Origin: an uncultured Candidatus Binatia bacterium | GTDB lineage: Bacteria; Desulfobacterota; Binatia; UBA9968; CAXXLF01 | NCBI GenBank assembly: GCA_965218425.1 | Contig: OZ244621.1 | Span: 256,001-320,000, forward strand | Direction of reading: 5' to 3' | DNA length: 64,000 nucleotides | Shown: positions 29,020-40,346 of the stretch, one piece after another | Position numbering within the stretch: the first letter of the stretch is position 1 | How the letters are laid out: each line of letters begins with the position of its first letter | Translations under genes and position numbers: made by a program | The notes under the pieces: model-generated | Seen by the model: the letters and a program-made list of their open reading frames with translations, nothing else | Database searches by the model: none | What the model was told of the DNA's origin: nothing

Positions 29020-30273
29020 TTACTTGTTTCCTAACCTGTCGTGCACCTGGGTTCCAAGGATGATTGCCGTGGCGCTGGCCATGAAACCTAGAAATCCAAA
29101 CGCAGCCCAGAATCCTAGGATAGCCGAGAGCAACGCAAACATGGAGGTACTGGCGGGCGACCCCACGGTACCGATGGTATGCCAAACGCCATAGAACTTT
29201 CCCCGGGCCTTTGCCGGCGCAATGTCGGAGCCCAAGGTCTGCATGTTGCCGCCTGTAATGCCGTTGCTGGCGTAAACGCAGATGTAAGCCAGAACAAAAA
29301 TATGGACTGGCATCTGGAAATAATCCGCAATGCCGATGAAAATCATGGCGACCGTGAGCAGCGAGAAACCAGGCACCAAAGTGGCCTTGCGTCCGAAGCG
29401 GTCCATGATGTAACCCGAGCAGATGGTGATGGGGATGCCAACGGCCGTCACGGCCGTCGCGAGGATCCCGATGGTCTGCGGCAACAAATGATAGACGTAG
29501 GCGCCGTAGAAGTTGAGCTGACCGGAAAATATGGGGCCCCGTGTCATTCCAGCAAAGAGCTGAGCAACAAAGAAAATTATGACCTGATAGGTGAACAAAG
29601 CCCGCAACCCCGATTCCTCGGTCTCCTGCTCTTTAGTCCCTTGACCACCGAATTTCCCCGTCAAATGGGGAGCCGTCTCCTTAGTCAGCTTGAAACTGGG
29701 GATGATCGCAATGAGGGACAGTAACGCGAGGGCAATGAACGGAGCACGGATGTCCCAGTAGCCGGCGAGAAGTCCCCCGAGGGCCGGTGAGAAGAGTCGG
29801 CCGGAATGCTGCATTGCGGCCATGGTGGTAATCTGGCGGCCCCGTTCCCGGTCGGCGCCGGTATCGGCGATCATGGCCAGCCTGCCCAGGTGCCACATCT
29901 GCTGCCCTACCCCACCGATAAAGCGATAAACAAGCAATTCGAAAAAGGAACGCGCCACGGCAACCAGCAACGAAGAAACCGCAAGGATGATGGGGCCGGT
30001 AAGAAGGATCTTTCTGCGACCGAGGCGATCCATCAGCAAGCCAATGGGAAAACTCGAAAGGGTGACCCCCAATTGGTGCACGATGATCACCAAGGAGGCA
30101 ATCTCAAAGGAGACACCGAAGGACCTGGCGTAGACGGGAAGCGCCGGAACAATGATCCCGGTGCCCACCGCAAGGGTCATGGCCGGAACATAGATGGATA
30201 GAAAATTTTGCCGCGAGTAGATTCCGCCACCACCACTAGCCACGAGCCGCACCTGCGGGAGAGGCAAAACCAC
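29020..30273 (-). CDS. MFS transporter (paralog of 39096-40346; start may be GTG 30243)
   Basis: Multiple hydrophobic segments; MDRLGRR and MDRFGRK motif A. Confidence 0.92.
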   Translation of the reverse strand: MVLPLPQVRLVASGGGGIYSRQNFLSIYVPAMTLAVGTGIIVPALPVYARSFGVSFEIASLVIIVHQLGVTLSSFPIGLLMDRLGRRKILLTGPIILAVSSLLVAVARSFFELLVYRFIGGVGQQMWHLGRLAMIADTGADRERGRQITTMAAMQHSGRLFSPALGGLLAGYWDIRAPFIALALLSLIAIIPSFKLTKETAPHLTGKFGGQGTKEQETEESGLRALFTYQVIIFFVAQLFAGMTRGPIFSGQLNFYGAYVYHLLPQTIGILATAVTAVGIPITICSGYIMDRFGRKATLVPGFSLLTVAMIFIGIADYFQMPVHIFVLAYICVYASNGITGGNMQTLGSDIAPAKARGKFYGVWHTIGTVGSPASTSMFALLSAILGFWAAFGFLGFMASATAIILGTQVHDRLGNK

Positions 30274-31518: not shown

Positions 31519-32181
31519 TTAGTGCCCGGAGTTCTCCCACACGGCGAGGGCGACCCGGCAACACAGGGTGTCCTGCTCTGCCCGACTGCCCCCAGCCACT
31601 CCGATCCCGCCGATGATGGCAACTCCATCGACGATGACAATACCGCCTCCTGTAGGAGTGATGCGACCGCGATGGGAAACCATGAGGCTGCGCAGCCAGG
31701 CCTGCCGGGCTTGTGGCACCAACTCCTCGGTGGGTACGTGAAAGGCGGCCGCCGTGTAGGCCTTATGAAAGGCAAGCTCCGCCGTCCTCGGGTTAGCCTC
31801 GTCCATCCTCCCTACGGCAATGGGGCAACCGGCCTCATCAACCACCGCAACGGCCACCTTCATCCCCTCCTTACTGGCATACGCATGCGTCGCATTGACC
31901 ATCTCCCATGCCTTCTCCATGGGAACGGGACCAACATCCGGTTTATTTTGCCGAAAGAAGCTGGCGTTGACCTCCAGCGAGTGCTTGTGCTCGGCTGGTA
32001 GGTCGTAATCAACGAAAATGGCGTCCACGGGACAGACGATTTCGCATTGCTCGCAATCGATACACACCTCGGGATCGATATAGAACTGTGGCGCCCCGGG
32101 GGTGGTATGAATGCAGGCCACCGGACATACATCCACGCAGGACCCATCGTTGGTGCAAAGCTCCGTGATGACGTAAGGCAG
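31519..32181 (-). CDS. Dicluster (7Fe-type) ferredoxin fused to a GlcG/HbpS heme-binding domain; putative CTG start
   Basis: (M)PYVITELCTNDGSCVDVCPVACIH, CIDCEQCEIVCP; then AVVDEAG...RMD...KAYTA...GGIGVAGG...QD; AGGAG RBS upstream of CTG at 32181. Confidence 0.85.
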   Translation of the reverse strand: MPYVITELCTNDGSCVDVCPVACIHTTPGAPQFYIDPEVCIDCEQCEIVCPVDAIFVDYDLPAEHKHSLEVNASFFRQNKPDVGPVPMEKAWEMVNATHAYASKEGMKVAVAVVDEAGCPIAVGRMDEANPRTAELAFHKAYTAAAFHVPTEELVPQARQAWLRSLMVSHRGRITPTGGGIVIVDGVAIIGGIGVAGGSRAEQDTLCCRVALAVWENSGH

Positions 32182-32191
32182 GTGTTCTCTC

Positions 32192-32773
32192 CTAGCCGTC
32201 TGCGATCAGCGGTAAATCGGTGCGGATGACGTTCACCACATGAACCTGGGTCCCGTATTTTTGCGTCGCCAGTTTCCCCTCGGCGTTGATCGTCCCCAGA
32301 CCTGCTGCTTCGGCTAGTTGCTCCGCATCAGGGTCCGCCGACGCCGCGGCGCGAAATCCAAGTTCTCTGATCCATGCGCTGAGGACGAAGGTGACGAACA
32401 GGCCGTTCTGTACGGGCACCTGGCCACCAACTCCCGGGGCCGTTTGCGGGTCCATTTCCGCTCGTACCGCGCAGATGACCGCGAAGGAAAACCCTTCACT
32501 GTTGTCAGATTCATTGGTGTCTAATTTCGTGATGCCCACCAGATCGGCACCCAGATAGCGTGCCAGTTCTTTCACATGGCTGGAAGTAATCTCCGGCGTA
32601 TGGATGTCAGCCTTGGTTGGGAAAACATTGCCCTCGGGGGCATTGCGGATCAACTCCGGCACCGAGTTGGCAAGATCGGCCATGGGCTTGTTGAGAAAAG
32701 TCTCCCAGTAGGGATCTTCCCGGGCGGCTCTTCCAAGCCAGGGAATATTAAACGGTCCCAACCGCAAGGCCAC
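32192..32773 (-). CDS. Stand-alone RdhA-like core domain lacking Fe-S motifs
   Basis: HVKELARYLGADLVGI, WIRELGFRA, AEAAGLG, KYG...IRTDLPL parallel the upstream RdhA; no CxxCxxC. Confidence 0.75.
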   Translation of the reverse strand: MALRLGPFNIPWLGRAAREDPYWETFLNKPMADLANSVPELIRNAPEGNVFPTKADIHTPEITSSHVKELARYLGADLVGITKLDTNESDNSEGFSFAVICAVRAEMDPQTAPGVGGQVPVQNGLFVTFVLSAWIRELGFRAAASADPDAEQLAEAAGLGTINAEGKLATQKYGTQVHVVNVIRTDLPLIADG

Positions 32774-34113
32774 TAGACGTCCCGTCTCACGAATCGGTTA
32801 GTGTTTTCCTTCAGAGGCGCATAATAGCCCATATTACCGACCACCTCCCCCGATGCTTTGTCCCCTTCATGGGAGGCCGTGCAACCGGCAACGGTACAGG
32901 CGTGCTCGCCGGGTTTCGCGCCGGAGTCATAGCCCAGCCATTTCACCCGTGTCTGACGCGCCACCCCCCAGAACCGGTCGTCGATGGCCTTGAGGGCTTT
33001 CACCAGAGTTGGGCGTAAGGGAATGGGGCAGGTGTGGAGAGCCAAAATAGTAAGGCTTCGCCACCAAACGTTGGGTTTGGTAAAGGGACAAACGGTGGCG
33101 CAGGTCAGGCAGCTCCCCCAATGTTCGTGGGTATAGGCCCGCAGCTTGTAACAGGTGAGCCAGTTGATCTTGTACTTCTCAACCCCGTTGTAAACCTCCT
33201 TGTCCTCGAAGGTGATGCTGTTGGTGGGACAATTGATGGCGCATTTGCGACAGATCTTGCAGAAGTCTTCAACGCCTATGTCAAGGGGTTGGTCCGAAAC
33301 CAATGGGAGGTCGGTTAGTATGGGATCCGGCATATGGATGCGGGCACCGTATTTATCGTTTATGAGGAGCCCGTTGCGGCCCAGCTCGCCGACACCGGAG
33401 GCCAATCCTGAGGCCTGAGGGTTAGCCACACCGCGGAGCGCAGTATACCCCAATTCTTTCACATACCCTTCAAGGGCCTTGAGAATCATGACGCCTCTCA
33501 TCTGCGACACGTGATAGGCGGCGTCACCGATATGGTGCCGATGGGCCTGGAGCTTATTGTAGTCCCATGCTGTGGTGGCAACGATGAGGTAAGGGAATTT
33601 GCGGACCAGCTCCTCAGGCGCCTGGGTCTCATACGCGTCCTCGGCCGTACCGTCCTGGACGTAGCGGGCTCCGGCGTACAGGAAGCTCGGATGCGCTTTG
33701 GCGACGGCCACAATATCGGCACCCATATAGCGGGCGACGGCTTTGATGTGGCGCGTCATGGCGGCTGGATCATCCACCGAAACCCGATCCGGATTGACCA
33801 TGCCTTTGCTTGCCCGGTTAACCACCGTGGTAAGGAAATGTCTGTGGTCGGCGAAATGGTTTGGAGCGGATACCCGGGTCAAGGGATCTTTGGAAACCGT
33901 GTTGTGCTGATAGTTGAATAGGGCCTTCCCCAACTCACCGCGCCGGTTCTTTGGGTGCGGCGACTGGTTCATGTCAACGTTGGCGACGGGTCCGACAATG
34001 CGAACCGTCCGGCCAAGGTAGGGGGGAGGAGGAAGGTCAGCCTTCGCTTGATTACTTTTGAGGCCATCACCCTCGTTAAGTGGCTTTGCGGTACTCTCCA
34101 GTCCTTCAACCAT
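32773..34113 (-). CDS. rdhA: Reductive dehalogenase-like B12/Fe-S protein, no Tat signal
   Basis: IKAVARYMGADIV, SGVGELGRNG...YGAR...TDLPL, FCKICRKCAINCP, C-x13-CLTCATVCP. Confidence 0.82.
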   Translation of the reverse strand: MVEGLESTAKPLNEGDGLKSNQAKADLPPPPYLGRTVRIVGPVANVDMNQSPHPKNRRGELGKALFNYQHNTVSKDPLTRVSAPNHFADHRHFLTTVVNRASKGMVNPDRVSVDDPAAMTRHIKAVARYMGADIVAVAKAHPSFLYAGARYVQDGTAEDAYETQAPEELVRKFPYLIVATTAWDYNKLQAHRHHIGDAAYHVSQMRGVMILKALEGYVKELGYTALRGVANPQASGLASGVGELGRNGLLINDKYGARIHMPDPILTDLPLVSDQPLDIGVEDFCKICRKCAINCPTNSITFEDKEVYNGVEKYKINWLTCYKLRAYTHEHWGSCLTCATVCPFTKPNVWWRSLTILALHTCPIPLRPTLVKALKAIDDRFWGVARQTRVKWLGYDSGAKPGEHACTVAGCTASHEGDKASGEVVGNMGYYAPLKENTNRFVRRDV

Positions 34114-34209
34114 GGCAGCTTCTCCTTCCTAGTTTATGATCTATACCCTAGCGGCAGCAGGTGCTTAACGGTTTTTTAGGCGGAAAACGATCTCATTTTA
34201 ATTTCCAAC

Positions 34210-34608
34210 TCATGCATATGAGGCGAGAGCAACTTCGGCACATCGTTGGTCCTGATCATCGGTACCACCGGCCACGGCAACGGCGCCTACAACATTACCA
34301 CCCTCCACCACGGGCAGAGCCCCCGCACCGGGCATAATTCGACCGCTGCTGGAAACCACCAAACTCTGGAACCAGGTCTGGCCTGCAACCCCGGACAATT
34401 CCTTGGTGGGTTGCTGGAAACTAGCCGCCGTGTAGGCTTTGTTCAGAGCGATTTCCACCGTGATGGGCCGCGCGCGGTCCATTCGGCCCACTGCGATCAT
34501 TCGGCCACTCTGATCAACCACCACCGCAGTAACCGCGATGTCCAACTGTGCCGCTTCAGTGTGAGCGGCGCGAACTATTTCAATCGCCTTTTCTCCTGGT
34601 ATCGCCAT
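34210..34608 (-). CDS. GlcG/HbpS/PduO-C-type heme-binding protein
   Basis: AVVVDQSG, RMDRA, ALNKAYTAAS, VGAVAVAGG, QDQRCA. Confidence 0.88.
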   Translation of the reverse strand: MAIPGEKAIEIVRAAHTEAAQLDIAVTAVVVDQSGRMIAVGRMDRARPITVEIALNKAYTAASFQQPTKELSGVAGQTWFQSLVVSSSGRIMPGAGALPVVEGGNVVGAVAVAGGTDDQDQRCAEVALASYA

Positions 34609-34676
34609 GGTCGCTTCGGCCCTCTGTTGGTGTTTAGTGCAAACGCCAAATCAACGAGATGCTGCAATTTGGCTAT

Positions 34677-34705
34677 AGTCTATTCCTGCCTGACCGGACT
34701 GTCAA
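34677..34705 (-). promoter_or_regulatory. Sigma70 promoter of the GlcG-RdhA operon
   Basis: Minus strand TTGACA-17 nt-TAGACT; TGAC-N6-GTCA palindrome at 34691-34704. Confidence 0.7.
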
Positions 34706-34724: not shown

Positions 34725-35210
34725 AAGCACAAAGCGCAGAGCCCGCAGTACTGGGTAACGAGTTCTGATTACTGAGCAGAACTAGCTATCAGCCGTCAGC
34801 TTTCAGCGATCAGCCAGTCAAGAGAGAAAGACAGCAGGCAGTAGGCAGGGAGCAGCCGGAATAGTGTTGAGTGCTGACGGATGAGGGGCCGGAGATCGGA
34901 GGGCAGAGGTCGGAGATCAGAGATCAGGCAAGATCAAGGAAAGGCGCGAAGGGTAATGCGTTAGGACTGGACGACGGACTACTGACGACAGGACTACGAA
35001 CAGACAGAGATAGAGATAGGGACAGAGCGAGAAACGAGAAAGACAGTGGGCAGAGGGCAGTTGGCAGCAAAAGAATAATCGCTCACTACAAGATTACGAA
35101 CAACGGACTCCTGGTCGGCAATTCCCGTATCAGGGTCAGTAGTCGGTAGCCAGTGGTCCCGAATCCGTATGGACGCTATGCTCTTTGCGCTTTGCTATTA
35201 GGCTCAGTGC
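34725..35210. repeat. Largest intergenic mosaic of periodic modules (forward then reverse), including composite Z, copy 2
   Basis: GCTATCAGCCGTCAGCTTTCAGC, GACAGCAGGCAGTAGGCAG, GGAGATCGGAGGGCAGAGGTCGGAGATCAGAGATCAG, GGACTACTGACGACAGGACTAC, then GGACGCTATGCTCTTTGCGCTTTGC. Confidence 0.82.
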
Positions 35211-39095: not shown

Positions 39096-40346
39096 TTACG
39101 AGGTCACGTTCGCTGTCGGCTTCTCCCGCAACTTTTCGCGCACCTGGGTGCCAAGAATGAAGGCCGTTCCACCGGCCATGGCCCCGAGGAAACCATAGGC
39201 TGCCCAATAACCCAATCCGCCCGATAACACCGCAAACATAGAGGTGCCGCCCGGAGCCCCAATGGTGCCTATGGTGTTCCATACCCCGTAGAACTTTCCG
39301 CGCGCTCTTTCTGGCGCGATGTCCGACCCGAGGGTTTGCATGTTACCGCTAGTGATACCGGTACTGGCGTATACACAGATATACGCGAGCACGAACATGT
39401 TGAAGGATAATTGAACGTAATCCGTAACGCCGATGAAGACGAGGGCCAAGGTAAGCAATGAGAAGCCCGGTACAAGAGTGGCTTTGCGCCCGTAACGGTC
39501 CATAATGAATCCGGAAGCGATGGTAATGGGGATGCCAATGGCCGTTACGGCGGTGGCCAAAATCCCTATGGCCTGGGGCGACAGGTCGTAGGCATAGGCG
39601 CCATAGAGGTTTAACTGCCCTGAAAAGATGGGACCGCGAGTCAGGGAAGCAAAAAATTGGGCGGCAAAAAAGATGATGACCTGGTAGGTGAGAAGTTCCC
39701 GGAAGCTAGTGCGCGTCGCCGGGTCGGCCTGCTTGCCACCGCTACTGGTACTCTTGATGAGATGGGGTGCCGTCTCCTGCGCCAGCTTGAAACTTGGAAT
39801 GATGGCGATGAGGGACAGCAGTGCATGGGCAATAAACGGCGCACGGATATCCCAGAAGCCAGCCAACAGCCCGCCAAGGGCCGGCGAAAAGAGCCGGCCT
39901 GCGTTCTGCATCGCGGTCATTGTGGTGATTTGCCGACCGCGCTCTCGGTCCGCTCCCGTATCCGCGATCATCGCCAAGCGCCCGAGGTGCCACATCTGCT
40001 CACCAACTCCGCTGATGAACCGGTAGACCAACAACTCGGGGAAAGTCTGCGCCACCGTAATAAGAAAAGCCGAGACGGCCAGAAGCACAGGGCCGGCGAG
40101 CAGGACCTTTCGGCGCCCGACCCGGTCGATGAGCAAGCCCACGGGATAACTCGAGAGAGTCATCCCCAGTTGGTGAACGATGATCGCTAGAGAGGCAATT
40201 TCAAAGGAGACCTGGAACGACTTGGCGTATACCGGCAGCGCGGGGACCACAATGCCGGTGCCTACGGCAAGGGTCATGGCCGGCACATAGATGGAAAGAA
40301 AGTTTTGGCGCGAGTATACACCGCCGCCTCGCTCAGTACTACTCAC
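39096..40346 (-). CDS. MFS transporter (paralog of 29020-30273)
   Basis: Long identical stretches with the paralog, e.g. YSRQNFLSIYVPAMTLAVGTGI and HLGRLAMIADTGADRERGRQITTM. Confidence 0.92.
   Translation of the reverse strand: MSSTERGGGVYSRQNFLSIYVPAMTLAVGTGIVVPALPVYAKSFQVSFEIASLAIIVHQLGMTLSSYPVGLLIDRVGRRKVLLAGPVLLAVSAFLITVAQTFPELLVYRFISGVGEQMWHLGRLAMIADTGADRERGRQITTMTAMQNAGRLFSPALGGLLAGFWDIRAPFIAHALLSLIAIIPSFKLAQETAPHLIKSTSSGGKQADPATRTSFRELLTYQVIIFFAAQFFASLTRGPIFSGQLNLYGAYAYDLSPQAIGILATAVTAIGIPITIASGFIMDRYGRKATLVPGFSLLTLALVFIGVTDYVQLSFNMFVLAYICVYASTGITSGNMQTLGSDIAPERARGKFYGVWNTIGTIGAPGGTSMFAVLSGGLGYWAAYGFLGAMAGGTAFILGTQVREKLREKPTANVTS

Follow-up and report, generated by a model that had tools for sequence, protein, structure and literature searches.

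The stretch of DNA analyzed here—referred to as the window—comprises 64,000 nucleotides of an uncultured Candidatus Binatia bacterium (contig OZ244621.1 of assembly GCA_965218425.1, positions 256,001 to 320,000). It carries a cassette of four co-oriented genes on the minus strand, which encode, in this order, a free GlcG protein (G1), an RdhA-like protein, a stand-alone core protein (Core), and a ferredoxin fused to a second GlcG domain (Fd-GlcG, with the GlcG domain named G2). Table 1 lists these genes, all four of which a preliminary description of this DNA had reported. Taken by its architecture alone, the cassette probably encodes a cytoplasmic, ferredoxin-fed cobalamin reductase complex.

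Table 1. Genes and sequence features of the cassette (window positions; aa, amino acids; Tat, twin-arginine translocation)
Feature	Position	Strand	Remark
Free GlcG/HbpS-like (DUF336) protein G1, 132 aa	34210..34608	-	PF03928, E 2e-28
RdhA-family cobalamin/2x[4Fe-4S] catalytic subunit, 446 aa, no Tat signal	32773..34113	-	Matches NpRdhA 270-651
Core, stand-alone vestigial cobalamin-core subunit, 193 aa, without Fe-S motif and GELGRNG loop	32192..32773	-	
Fd-GlcG: 7Fe FdxA-type ferredoxin and second GlcG domain (G2), 220 aa, CTG start	31519..32181	-	
Sigma-70-type promoter TTGACA-17-TAGACT	34677..34705	-	Same hexamers in L079, L125
Rebuilt active-site segment AHRHxIGD197xxY200H201xxQ204 of RdhA	33502..33546	-	Gln204 at catalytic Tyr (PceA Y246, NpRdhA Y426)
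His260 of RdhA	33334..33336	-	Position of PceA R305/NpRdhA K488
First Fe-S motif of RdhA, C285-x2-C288-x2-C291-x3-C295P	33226..33261	-	Invariant in 62/62
C321 and second Fe-S motif of RdhA, C335-x2-C338-x3-C342P	33085..33153	-	Sequence
Shine-Dalgarno AGGAG, overlapping the Core stop codon, 7 nt ahead of the CTG start	32189..32193	-	Sequence

Both GlcG domains pass the gathering score of Pfam PF03928 with 99.4 and 102.5 bits against 25. They are 48% identical to each other, and G1 is the most conserved gene of the cassette (68–97% identity, mean column identity 89%). The ferredoxin part is matched by FdxA_Actino at an E-value of 1e-16—below the cut-off, as tested on a truncated open reading frame (ORF)—and its cysteines C9, C15, C19, C23, C40, C43, C46, and C50 are invariant. 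Neither a Tat motif nor a clear membrane segment is present in any of the four proteins. In line with the preliminary description, no RdhB-like small hydrophobic membrane ORF lies within 3 kb of the cassette, and no regulator or NAD(P)H–ferredoxin reductase was found among the 53 window ORFs scanned (mostly of at least 150 aa; one scan at an E cut-off of 1e-12).

Of 134 genome and 462 metagenome matches, the best 80 each were used to follow the conservation of the cassette. All four genes stand in order in 47 of 63 genome loci and in all 40 metagenome loci with enough flank. Core lies directly downstream of RdhA in 72 of 74 genome and 63 of 63 metagenome loci, the ferredoxin gene is next after Core in 62/66 and 48/48, and a free GlcG gene precedes RdhA in 59/75 and 64/65, respectively. 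The four genes are thus likely one conserved operon, and the synteny on which the preliminary description had staked its reading is kept outside the window. The RdhA stop codon and Core overlap by one base in the window, as they do in 34 of 58 loci; judged by this layout, Core is translationally coupled to RdhA. Fourteen loci—13 labelled as Chloroflexota lineages and one unlabelled—keep RdhA, Core, and Fd-GlcG without G1. In the most divergent of these (mostly Dehalococcoidia and Chloroflexota records), the fused GlcG domain is closer to G1 than to G2, which suggests that G1 arose by duplication.

Cassette records include Binatia, Rokubacteria, Acidobacteriota, Methylomirabilota, Eisenbacteria, and Chloroflexota; the nearest named record among the matches listed is a Ca. 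Binatia (L079) with a 96% identical RdhA. The occurrence is patchy, with an RdhA orthologue of at least 74% identity in 15 of 61 relatives. The Fd-GlcG profile is matched in 11 of 251 class genomes, all 11 of which also hold such an orthologue. Outside the cassette, no further family is a constant neighbour among the 83 representative neighbours scanned of 122 listed—the flanks are lineage-specific—and no Rfam RNA, including the cobalamin riboswitch, was found in 20 of about 160 loci. A RidA/YjgF-family gene of 391–400 aa follows the cassette co-directionally in 11 loci (L060:9695-10867 and ten others), and one locus (L101) carries two divergent RdhA and Core copies.

The catalytic subunit is, by profile and tree, an RdhA-like enzyme and not QueG. 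In the profile comparison suggested by the preliminary description, it reaches 145.4 bits with TIGR02486 and 41 bits with the QueG profile TIGR00276, whose cut-off is 200. It bears no DYH motif, which is present in the separate QueG-like gene of the same genome (L003), and has no match to the HEAT-repeat tRNA domain of QueG. Both Fe–S motifs are there, with all eight cysteines invariant in 62 of 62 clade sequences, and there is no RR before residue 57 and no segment of transmembrane strength; hereby, the reading as a Tat-less RdhA with both motifs is confirmed. A Tat signal is found by pattern in none of 37 clade members versus 21 of 95 other RdhA-family proteins. In a tree of 134 core alignments—rooted on the one QueG of the genome, with the comparison set chosen by similarity to the query—the 37 cassette-clade members are monophyletic (support 1.0) and nested among RdhA-family proteins, the deep nodes being weak (0.48–0.93). 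The tree distance of the clade is 1.7–2.7 to the nearest other RdhA-family proteins and 7.0 to the genome's own QueG. The clustering with QueG that would have spoken against the preliminary description hence did not occur, and a QueG identity is ruled out by scores, tree placement, missing DYH motif, and the separate QueG-like gene. The RdhA model aligns to residues 270–651 of NpRdhA (Z 26.3, root mean square deviation (rmsd) 3.6, 325 residues) and to the PceA structures 4UQU and 8Q4H with Z 22–25, against Z 5.8 for MMACHC; a search of the ESM Atlas returned RdhA-like clusters only. Across Binatia, Rokubacteria, and Acidobacteriota records, RdhA is 72–83% identical.

Several related genes stand apart from the cassette. 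Stand-alone sister RdhA-like paralogues (L020, L022, L023, and L024) are about 40% identical and bear a SNNSRISD-like sequence in place of AHRHHIGD; L022 adjoins a plain FdxA gene, and genome G005 has six full-length copies. The window's own genome holds a second RdhA-like gene, split or frameshifted into overlapping ORFs of 139 aa and 218 aa (L002:1309-2228, minus strand; G000:C1 ~4,390,500-4,391,400). A further protein of 685 aa (P0131) looks like two tandem RdhA modules, each with Fe–S motifs. Within the cassette RdhA, residues 406–415 (window ~32869-32898, minus strand) form a C-terminal C-T-V-A-G-C-x-A-x-H motif, a possible extra metal site, of which Cys406 and Cys411 are kept in 55/62 and His415 in 56/62 sequences.

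The overlapping ORF reported as repeating the RdhA core without Fe–S motif is indeed such a copy: Core is 25% identical to residues 75–274 of RdhA (E 1e-17). Its model (mean predicted local distance difference test score, pLDDT, of 84.6) matches best residues 38–220 of NpRdhA (Z 17.7, rmsd 3.2, 164 residues), with PceA (Z 13.8) and QueG (Z 12.3) as lesser matches. This N-terminal region of NpRdhA is described as a vestigial duplicate without cobalamin; packed against the catalytic core, it imitates the respiratory dimer (PMC10463259). As Core matches this vestigial domain and RdhA the catalytic half, the two would rebuild the catabolic architecture in trans and in reversed order. The cassette thus likely holds a catabolic-type RdhA split into two genes—a stop codon separates the two ORFs, and their order is reversed relative to the NpRdhA domains—and RdhA likely pairs with the free Core, possibly as a dimer. 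The preliminary description had missed that Core supplies the vestigial domain of catabolic RdhAs in trans. No fused Core–RdhA of the cassette clade was found in a search for longer Core homologues, which is weak evidence; a protein of 603 aa from a related RdhA lineage (P0132) carries a Core-like domain (residues 44–201) fused ahead of its catalytic part and keeps the Tyr/Arg pair.

A second feature absent from the preliminary description is the loss of the catalytic Tyr–Lys/Arg dyad. Profile alignments, ungapped through the helix, place Gln204 at Tyr246 of PceA and Tyr426 of NpRdhA, and His260 at Arg305 and Lys488, respectively. At the catalytic tyrosine position, none of the 62 clade sequences has Tyr and 55 have Gln; the Lys/Arg position is His in 61 of them. 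Among 95 other RdhA-family representatives, Tyr is kept in 79 and Arg/Lys in 83, and 10 of the 89 with a residue at the Tyr position are also without Tyr. As read from these alignments, the proton-donor dyad is lost in the clade. His191, Arg192, His193, Asp197, and Tyr200, including the AHRH motif, are clade-invariant, and Arg227 (55/62) lies near the Asn272/Asp134 position. All four stand-alone sister paralogues examined share Asp197, Tyr200, and His260 and have no Core or GlcG beside them, so that the active-site change likely preceded the cassette. Because the dyad is gone, halophenols and halobenzoates are not a safe guess for the substrate.

For the electron path, a complex of three chains was modelled: RdhA 25–446, Core 14–193, and Fd-GlcG as partner. 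It scores 0.70 versus 0.01 for the best control; in the calibration, 116 of 157 solved complexes came up to the mark, as did 2 of 215 mismatched pairs. The runs agree in at least 78% of contacts, and the partner pLDDT is at least 85. In the model, ferredoxin residues 19–22 and 39–48, which we take to be the [4Fe-4S] face by the usual ferredoxin ligation rule, sit on RdhA 296–299 and 320–327, which flank C295 and C321. GlcG residues 148–153, 181–189, and 202–216 lie on RdhA helix 63–75 and Core 49–53. To our knowledge, there is no solved RdhA–ferredoxin or RdhA–GlcG complex from which this model could derive. By analogy to the assignment in QueG and reductive dehalogenases, C295, C321, C335, and C338 would bind the cobalamin-proximal cluster, and the docked faces in the model are the cysteine faces expected for electron transfer (PMC5175355). 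RdhA interface residues are conserved above average (0.87 versus 0.76). Fd-GlcG is hence predicted to clamp on RdhA–Core via its GlcG domain, with the ferredoxin at the cobalamin-proximal cluster. The model supports two earlier expectations—that the ferredoxin supplies electrons and that a GlcG domain contacts RdhA.

The proposal that the GlcG domains deliver or reduce the corrinoid finds no such support. In the model, docking takes place via the GlcG surface, so that GlcG seems to be more of an anchor than a carrier of the corrinoid. The position of the PduO heme ligand His18 is Ile in 51, Met in one, and Leu in one of 53 free GlcG sequences. His16 does not vary in G1, and 49 of 58 G2 sequences have His as their last residue—a C-terminal histidine being the aquocobalamin ligand of HbpS-type binders. 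Of the characterized relatives, PduOC binds aquocobalamin at most extremely weakly, and HbpS binds it with a dissociation constant (Kd) of 34 µM (PMC4923194, for HbpS as cited therein). By alignment-based numbering, G1 Arg42, Lys57, and Asp120 match R42, K57, and D121 of EfgA, and G2 keeps the Lys and Asp. EfgA is an aldehyde sensor with the pocket K57-S114-D121 (PMC8153426); its Ser114 position is Ser in 9/53 G1 and 7/58 G2 sequences and Ala in 44/53 and 49/58. G1 might complete a GlcG hetero-oligomer with G2.

The host genome is 97% complete and encodes B12-binding enzymes including a MetH-length frame, a PduO-type adenosyltransferase, and two POR-type oxidoreductases. A TonB-dependent receptor is preceded by two cobalamin riboswitches, which are separated by about 1 kb and enclose two small ORFs (G000:C1:3385475-3386888; L201, L202). 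CobS, BtuR/CobA, and methylmalonyl-CoA mutase have no match in the genome. The host likely salvages B12 and could reduce a ferredoxin.

On this basis, a mechanism can be proposed, for which the chance seems somewhat short of even once halogen chemistry is included. RdhA and Core would form a split cytoplasmic enzyme of the catabolic type that binds cobalamin. A general donor such as a 2-oxoacid:ferredoxin oxidoreductase might reduce the 7Fe ferredoxin, which would feed the cobalamin-proximal Fe–S cluster while the GlcG domain clamps Fd-GlcG on RdhA–Core. This would yield cob(I)alamin for the reductive cleavage of a carbon–halogen bond in a small polar substrate, the proton relay being relocated; the His/Arg-rich pocket might point to an anionic, haloacid-like substrate.

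Several points weigh against this mechanism. The RdhA score lies below the TIGR02486 cut-off of 160.35 bits, and PF13486 gives no match at an E-value of 0.1. The lost dyad is the proposed proton donor, and K488Q abolishes NpRdhA activity (PMC7565698), as mutating the conserved tyrosine inactivates this enzyme (PMC5500849); Tyr200 and His260 may replace the dyad. The AlphaFold monomer of RdhA is unreliable at the N terminus, the active-site loop (pLDDT below 50 at 187–198), and the C terminus. The complex model is without cobalamin and G1, and it was built from author-made alignments and three chains, unlike the calibration, whose counts hence hold roughly. Both Core and RdhA touch Fd-GlcG in it, and the score covers these partner contacts, not the RdhA–Core interface. 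On the GlcG side, conservation at the interface does not exceed the average (0.77 versus 0.75). Concerning synteny, the genomes are related and were picked by similarity, so that the counts are not independent trials. Two loci (L059 and L083) are without Fd-GlcG nearby, L113 stands alone, and L095 is without Core and has its ferredoxin-GlcG upstream of RdhA. Among the neighbours scanned, the cassette is accompanied by no regulator, transporter, or catabolic gene, which sets it apart from the cytosolic rdhA genes described in PMC12219181.

These points leave room for a different reaction of the same complex with the same electron path. Here, Co(I) would cleave a C–O, N–O, or S–O bond of one widespread polar metabolite, be it an epoxide, N-oxide, sulfoxide, or oxyanion, in a deoxygenation like that by QueG; Asp197, His193, and His260 would serve as acid–base relay. 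The tyrosine absent in 62/62 sequences is the one active-site residue common to PceA, NpRdhA, and QueG (PMC4646009), and QueG deoxygenates via an Asp–His pair (PMC5175355). The high identity across phyla, the invariant polar pocket, and the lack of regulator or pathway neighbours suggest one universal substrate, and the EfgA pocket Lys and Asp kept in the GlcG domains would fit a carbonyl product. However, the clade is nested among RdhA-family proteins, ten of which have likewise dropped the tyrosine, Tyr200 is invariant one turn away from the lost one, and the EfgA serine is mostly Ala in both G1 and G2. We consider this new class III cobalamin reaction a tentative but substantial possibility. 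The cassette would then represent, with the same tentative standing, a third class III branch beside dehalogenases and QueG: a hetero-oligomeric reductase that dropped the tyrosine shared by all characterized members, whose Co(I) would act in a new way on a common metabolite without halogen, and whose GlcG adaptor would clamp a dedicated low-potential ferredoxin beside the cobalamin-proximal cluster.

It is unlikely that the cassette is a corrinoid-processing machine like CblC/CblD, in which RdhA would bind salvaged cobalamin base-off and remove the upper ligand or reactivate it, with Core as cofactor-free partner and the GlcG domains taking up or delivering the product. This comes closest to the role for GlcG first suggested, and would suit a host that has B12 uptake and a PduO-type adenosyltransferase without a CobS or BtuR/CobA match. 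Gln233 (55/62) stands in register with QueG Arg141, where CblC has Gln, and the micromolar HbpS affinity and the G1 and G2 histidines would also fit. However, the 20 loci hold no cobalamin riboswitch, and no B12 uptake, synthesis, or B12-enzyme family was found among the 83 neighbour proteins scanned. The patchy cassette occurs in CobS-positive genomes too (2/5), the fold is far nearer RdhA than MMACHC, and PduOC barely binds aquocobalamin.

Quite improbable is a sensor-gated or detoxifying redox module, in which GlcG senses an aldehyde (as EfgA) or heme/redox state (as HbpS) and switches ferredoxin docking, so that the reductase would run only under sensed stress. The conservation of G1, which exceeds that of the enzyme itself, its match to three EfgA residues, and the RidA-family gene after 11 cassettes are consistent with it. 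On the other side, Lys and Asp appear family-wide, the EfgA serine is mostly replaced, G1 is absent from the 14 mostly Chloroflexota cassettes, and the cassette has no linked signalling gene. A last reading, in which a QueG was mis-annotated, a duplication is decaying, or the genes cluster by chance, can be dismissed—despite the sub-threshold TIGR02486 score and one database match named QueG (P0112)—being already refuted by profile scores, synteny, and tree, with Core intact and conserved in 72 of 74 and 63 of 63 loci.

Concerning expression of the cassette, the Fd-GlcG frame is open upstream of the listed GTG at 32136 and reads [L]PYVITELCTNDGSC from the CTG at 32181; a start at the GTG would cut the first cysteine motif. 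At the matching position, 117 of 121 Fd-GlcG homologues have ATG, GTG, or TTG, and none has CTG. As judged from this alignment, Fd-GlcG starts at CTG 32181, not at GTG 32136. An assembly error at this codon is unlikely, as contigs from two runs (X1 and X2, of which X2 may be the source sample) span it without difference. The CTG (window 32179-32181, minus strand) may lower Fd-GlcG expression relative to RdhA. The promoter reported ahead of the genes is barely above chance in the window alone (4 sites versus 2.3 ± 1.3 in shuffled sequence). L079 and L125 repeat both hexamers around a different spacer and, like the window, use a 17-bp version of the promoter, and a CTTGAC-type/19 bp/TAnAnT counterpart occupies a constant position in 71 of 115 distinct upstream regions, with 0.12 expected. 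Conservation hence supports the promoter as real. In the relatives (L035-L193), it reads as a conserved extended −10 promoter, CTTGAC(T/G)-19 bp ending CTGn-TAnAnT, about 70 bp upstream of G1. A MerR-type operator at this 19-bp promoter finds no support: dyad symmetry is missing (best mean 0.38), and the spacer is only one base longer than the 18 bp most common in the relatives' flanks. A single RNA run (X1, labelled sponge metagenome, share 0.07) yields two short identical contigs inside the cassette (32106-32263 and 33023-33193, depth about 3), while its flanks give no contig of comparable quality—at most a weak hint of expression, with DNA carry-over possible.

Around the cassette, a low-complexity tract of short repeats (window 34770-35200) lies between its promoter and a divergent molybdopterin oxidoreductase, and the contigs of relatives diverge from the window inside this tract, at 34777-34814. 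Two closely similar MFS transporter genes flank the region (29020-30273 and 39096-40346), and the window is rich in LLM monooxygenases, amidohydrolases, and molybdopterin enzymes.

The preliminary reading is thus partly supported: a conserved, self-contained cytoplasmic RdhA-family cassette is borne out. Its unfamiliarity among characterized dehalogenases holds as well, as a literature search—with most subscription journals and all supplements outside its scope—found no description of the cassette, nor do the available sections of PMC5395668 discuss it; it is apparently undescribed. According to PMC4646009, little is known of the redox partners of class III cobalamin enzymes, and NpRdhA could not be reconstituted with the ferredoxins encoded next to it (PMC10463259). 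As its four genes encode a full soluble system that includes a predicted cognate donor, the cassette makes the redox-partner question directly testable. It also proposes a concrete role for the enigmatic DUF336/GlcG fold—that of a docking adaptor—and indicates that catabolic RdhAs can have their vestigial domain as a subunit of its own. Hundreds of “reductive dehalogenase” genes in uncultured Binatia, Rokubacteria, and Chloroflexota appear to be without the catalytic dyad and may not mark organohalide turnover.

Among known systems, GlcG, HbpS, PduO-C, and EfgA (DUF336, PF03928) share their family with G1 and G2, which pass the Pfam cut-off and keep the EfgA residues named above, and differ from them by the missing PduO His18 and the mostly replaced EfgA Ser114. 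Fd-GlcG, furthermore, is unlike known GlcG proteins in its ferredoxin fusion and in the predicted use of the GlcG domain for docking on an enzyme; no such adaptor role was found in the literature compared. QueG has in common with the cassette the class III cobalamin/Fe–S redox chain and acidic and His residues near the upper face, and is set apart by its DYH motif, its HEAT-repeat tRNA domain, and the profile scores. Respiratory RdhAs (PceA of Sulfurospirillum, 4UQU; PceA2B2, 8Q4H) share the fold, both Fe–S motifs, and the GELGRNG-type loop with the cassette RdhA, which lacks Tat, RdhB, and the Tyr246/Arg305 pair and is predicted to form a heterodimer, not a homodimer. The “simplified cytosolic” RdhA-like proteins of PMC12219181 are similar in length (about 400 aa), are Tat-less, bear no in-chain vestigial domain, and are common in Chloroflexota. 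The cassette has this domain in trans; the passages compared from that study mention neither a partner subunit nor GlcG, and clade members could be in its supplements.

The closest resemblance is to the catabolic RdhAs (NpRdhA, PDB 4RAS and 6ZXU-6ZY1; JtRdhA; BhbA). Like the cassette, these have no Tat signal and no RdhB, combine the cobalamin-core fold with two [4Fe-4S] clusters, and bear a vestigial, cofactor-free core copy; ferredoxin genes are also found nearby in the NpRdhA cluster (PMC10463259). In the cassette, however, the vestigial domain is a separate gene after the catalytic one instead of an N-terminal fusion, Gln and His replace the Y426–K488 dyad, and no NAD(P)H reductase is fused or adjacent among the window ORFs scanned and the conserved neighbours. 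The ferredoxin, of the 7Fe type, forms one chain with GlcG, by which it is predicted to dock, and no catabolic or regulatory genes are linked. The cassette hence resembles a catabolic RdhA and yet departs from this type in its dyad, its domain fusion, and its reductase partner.

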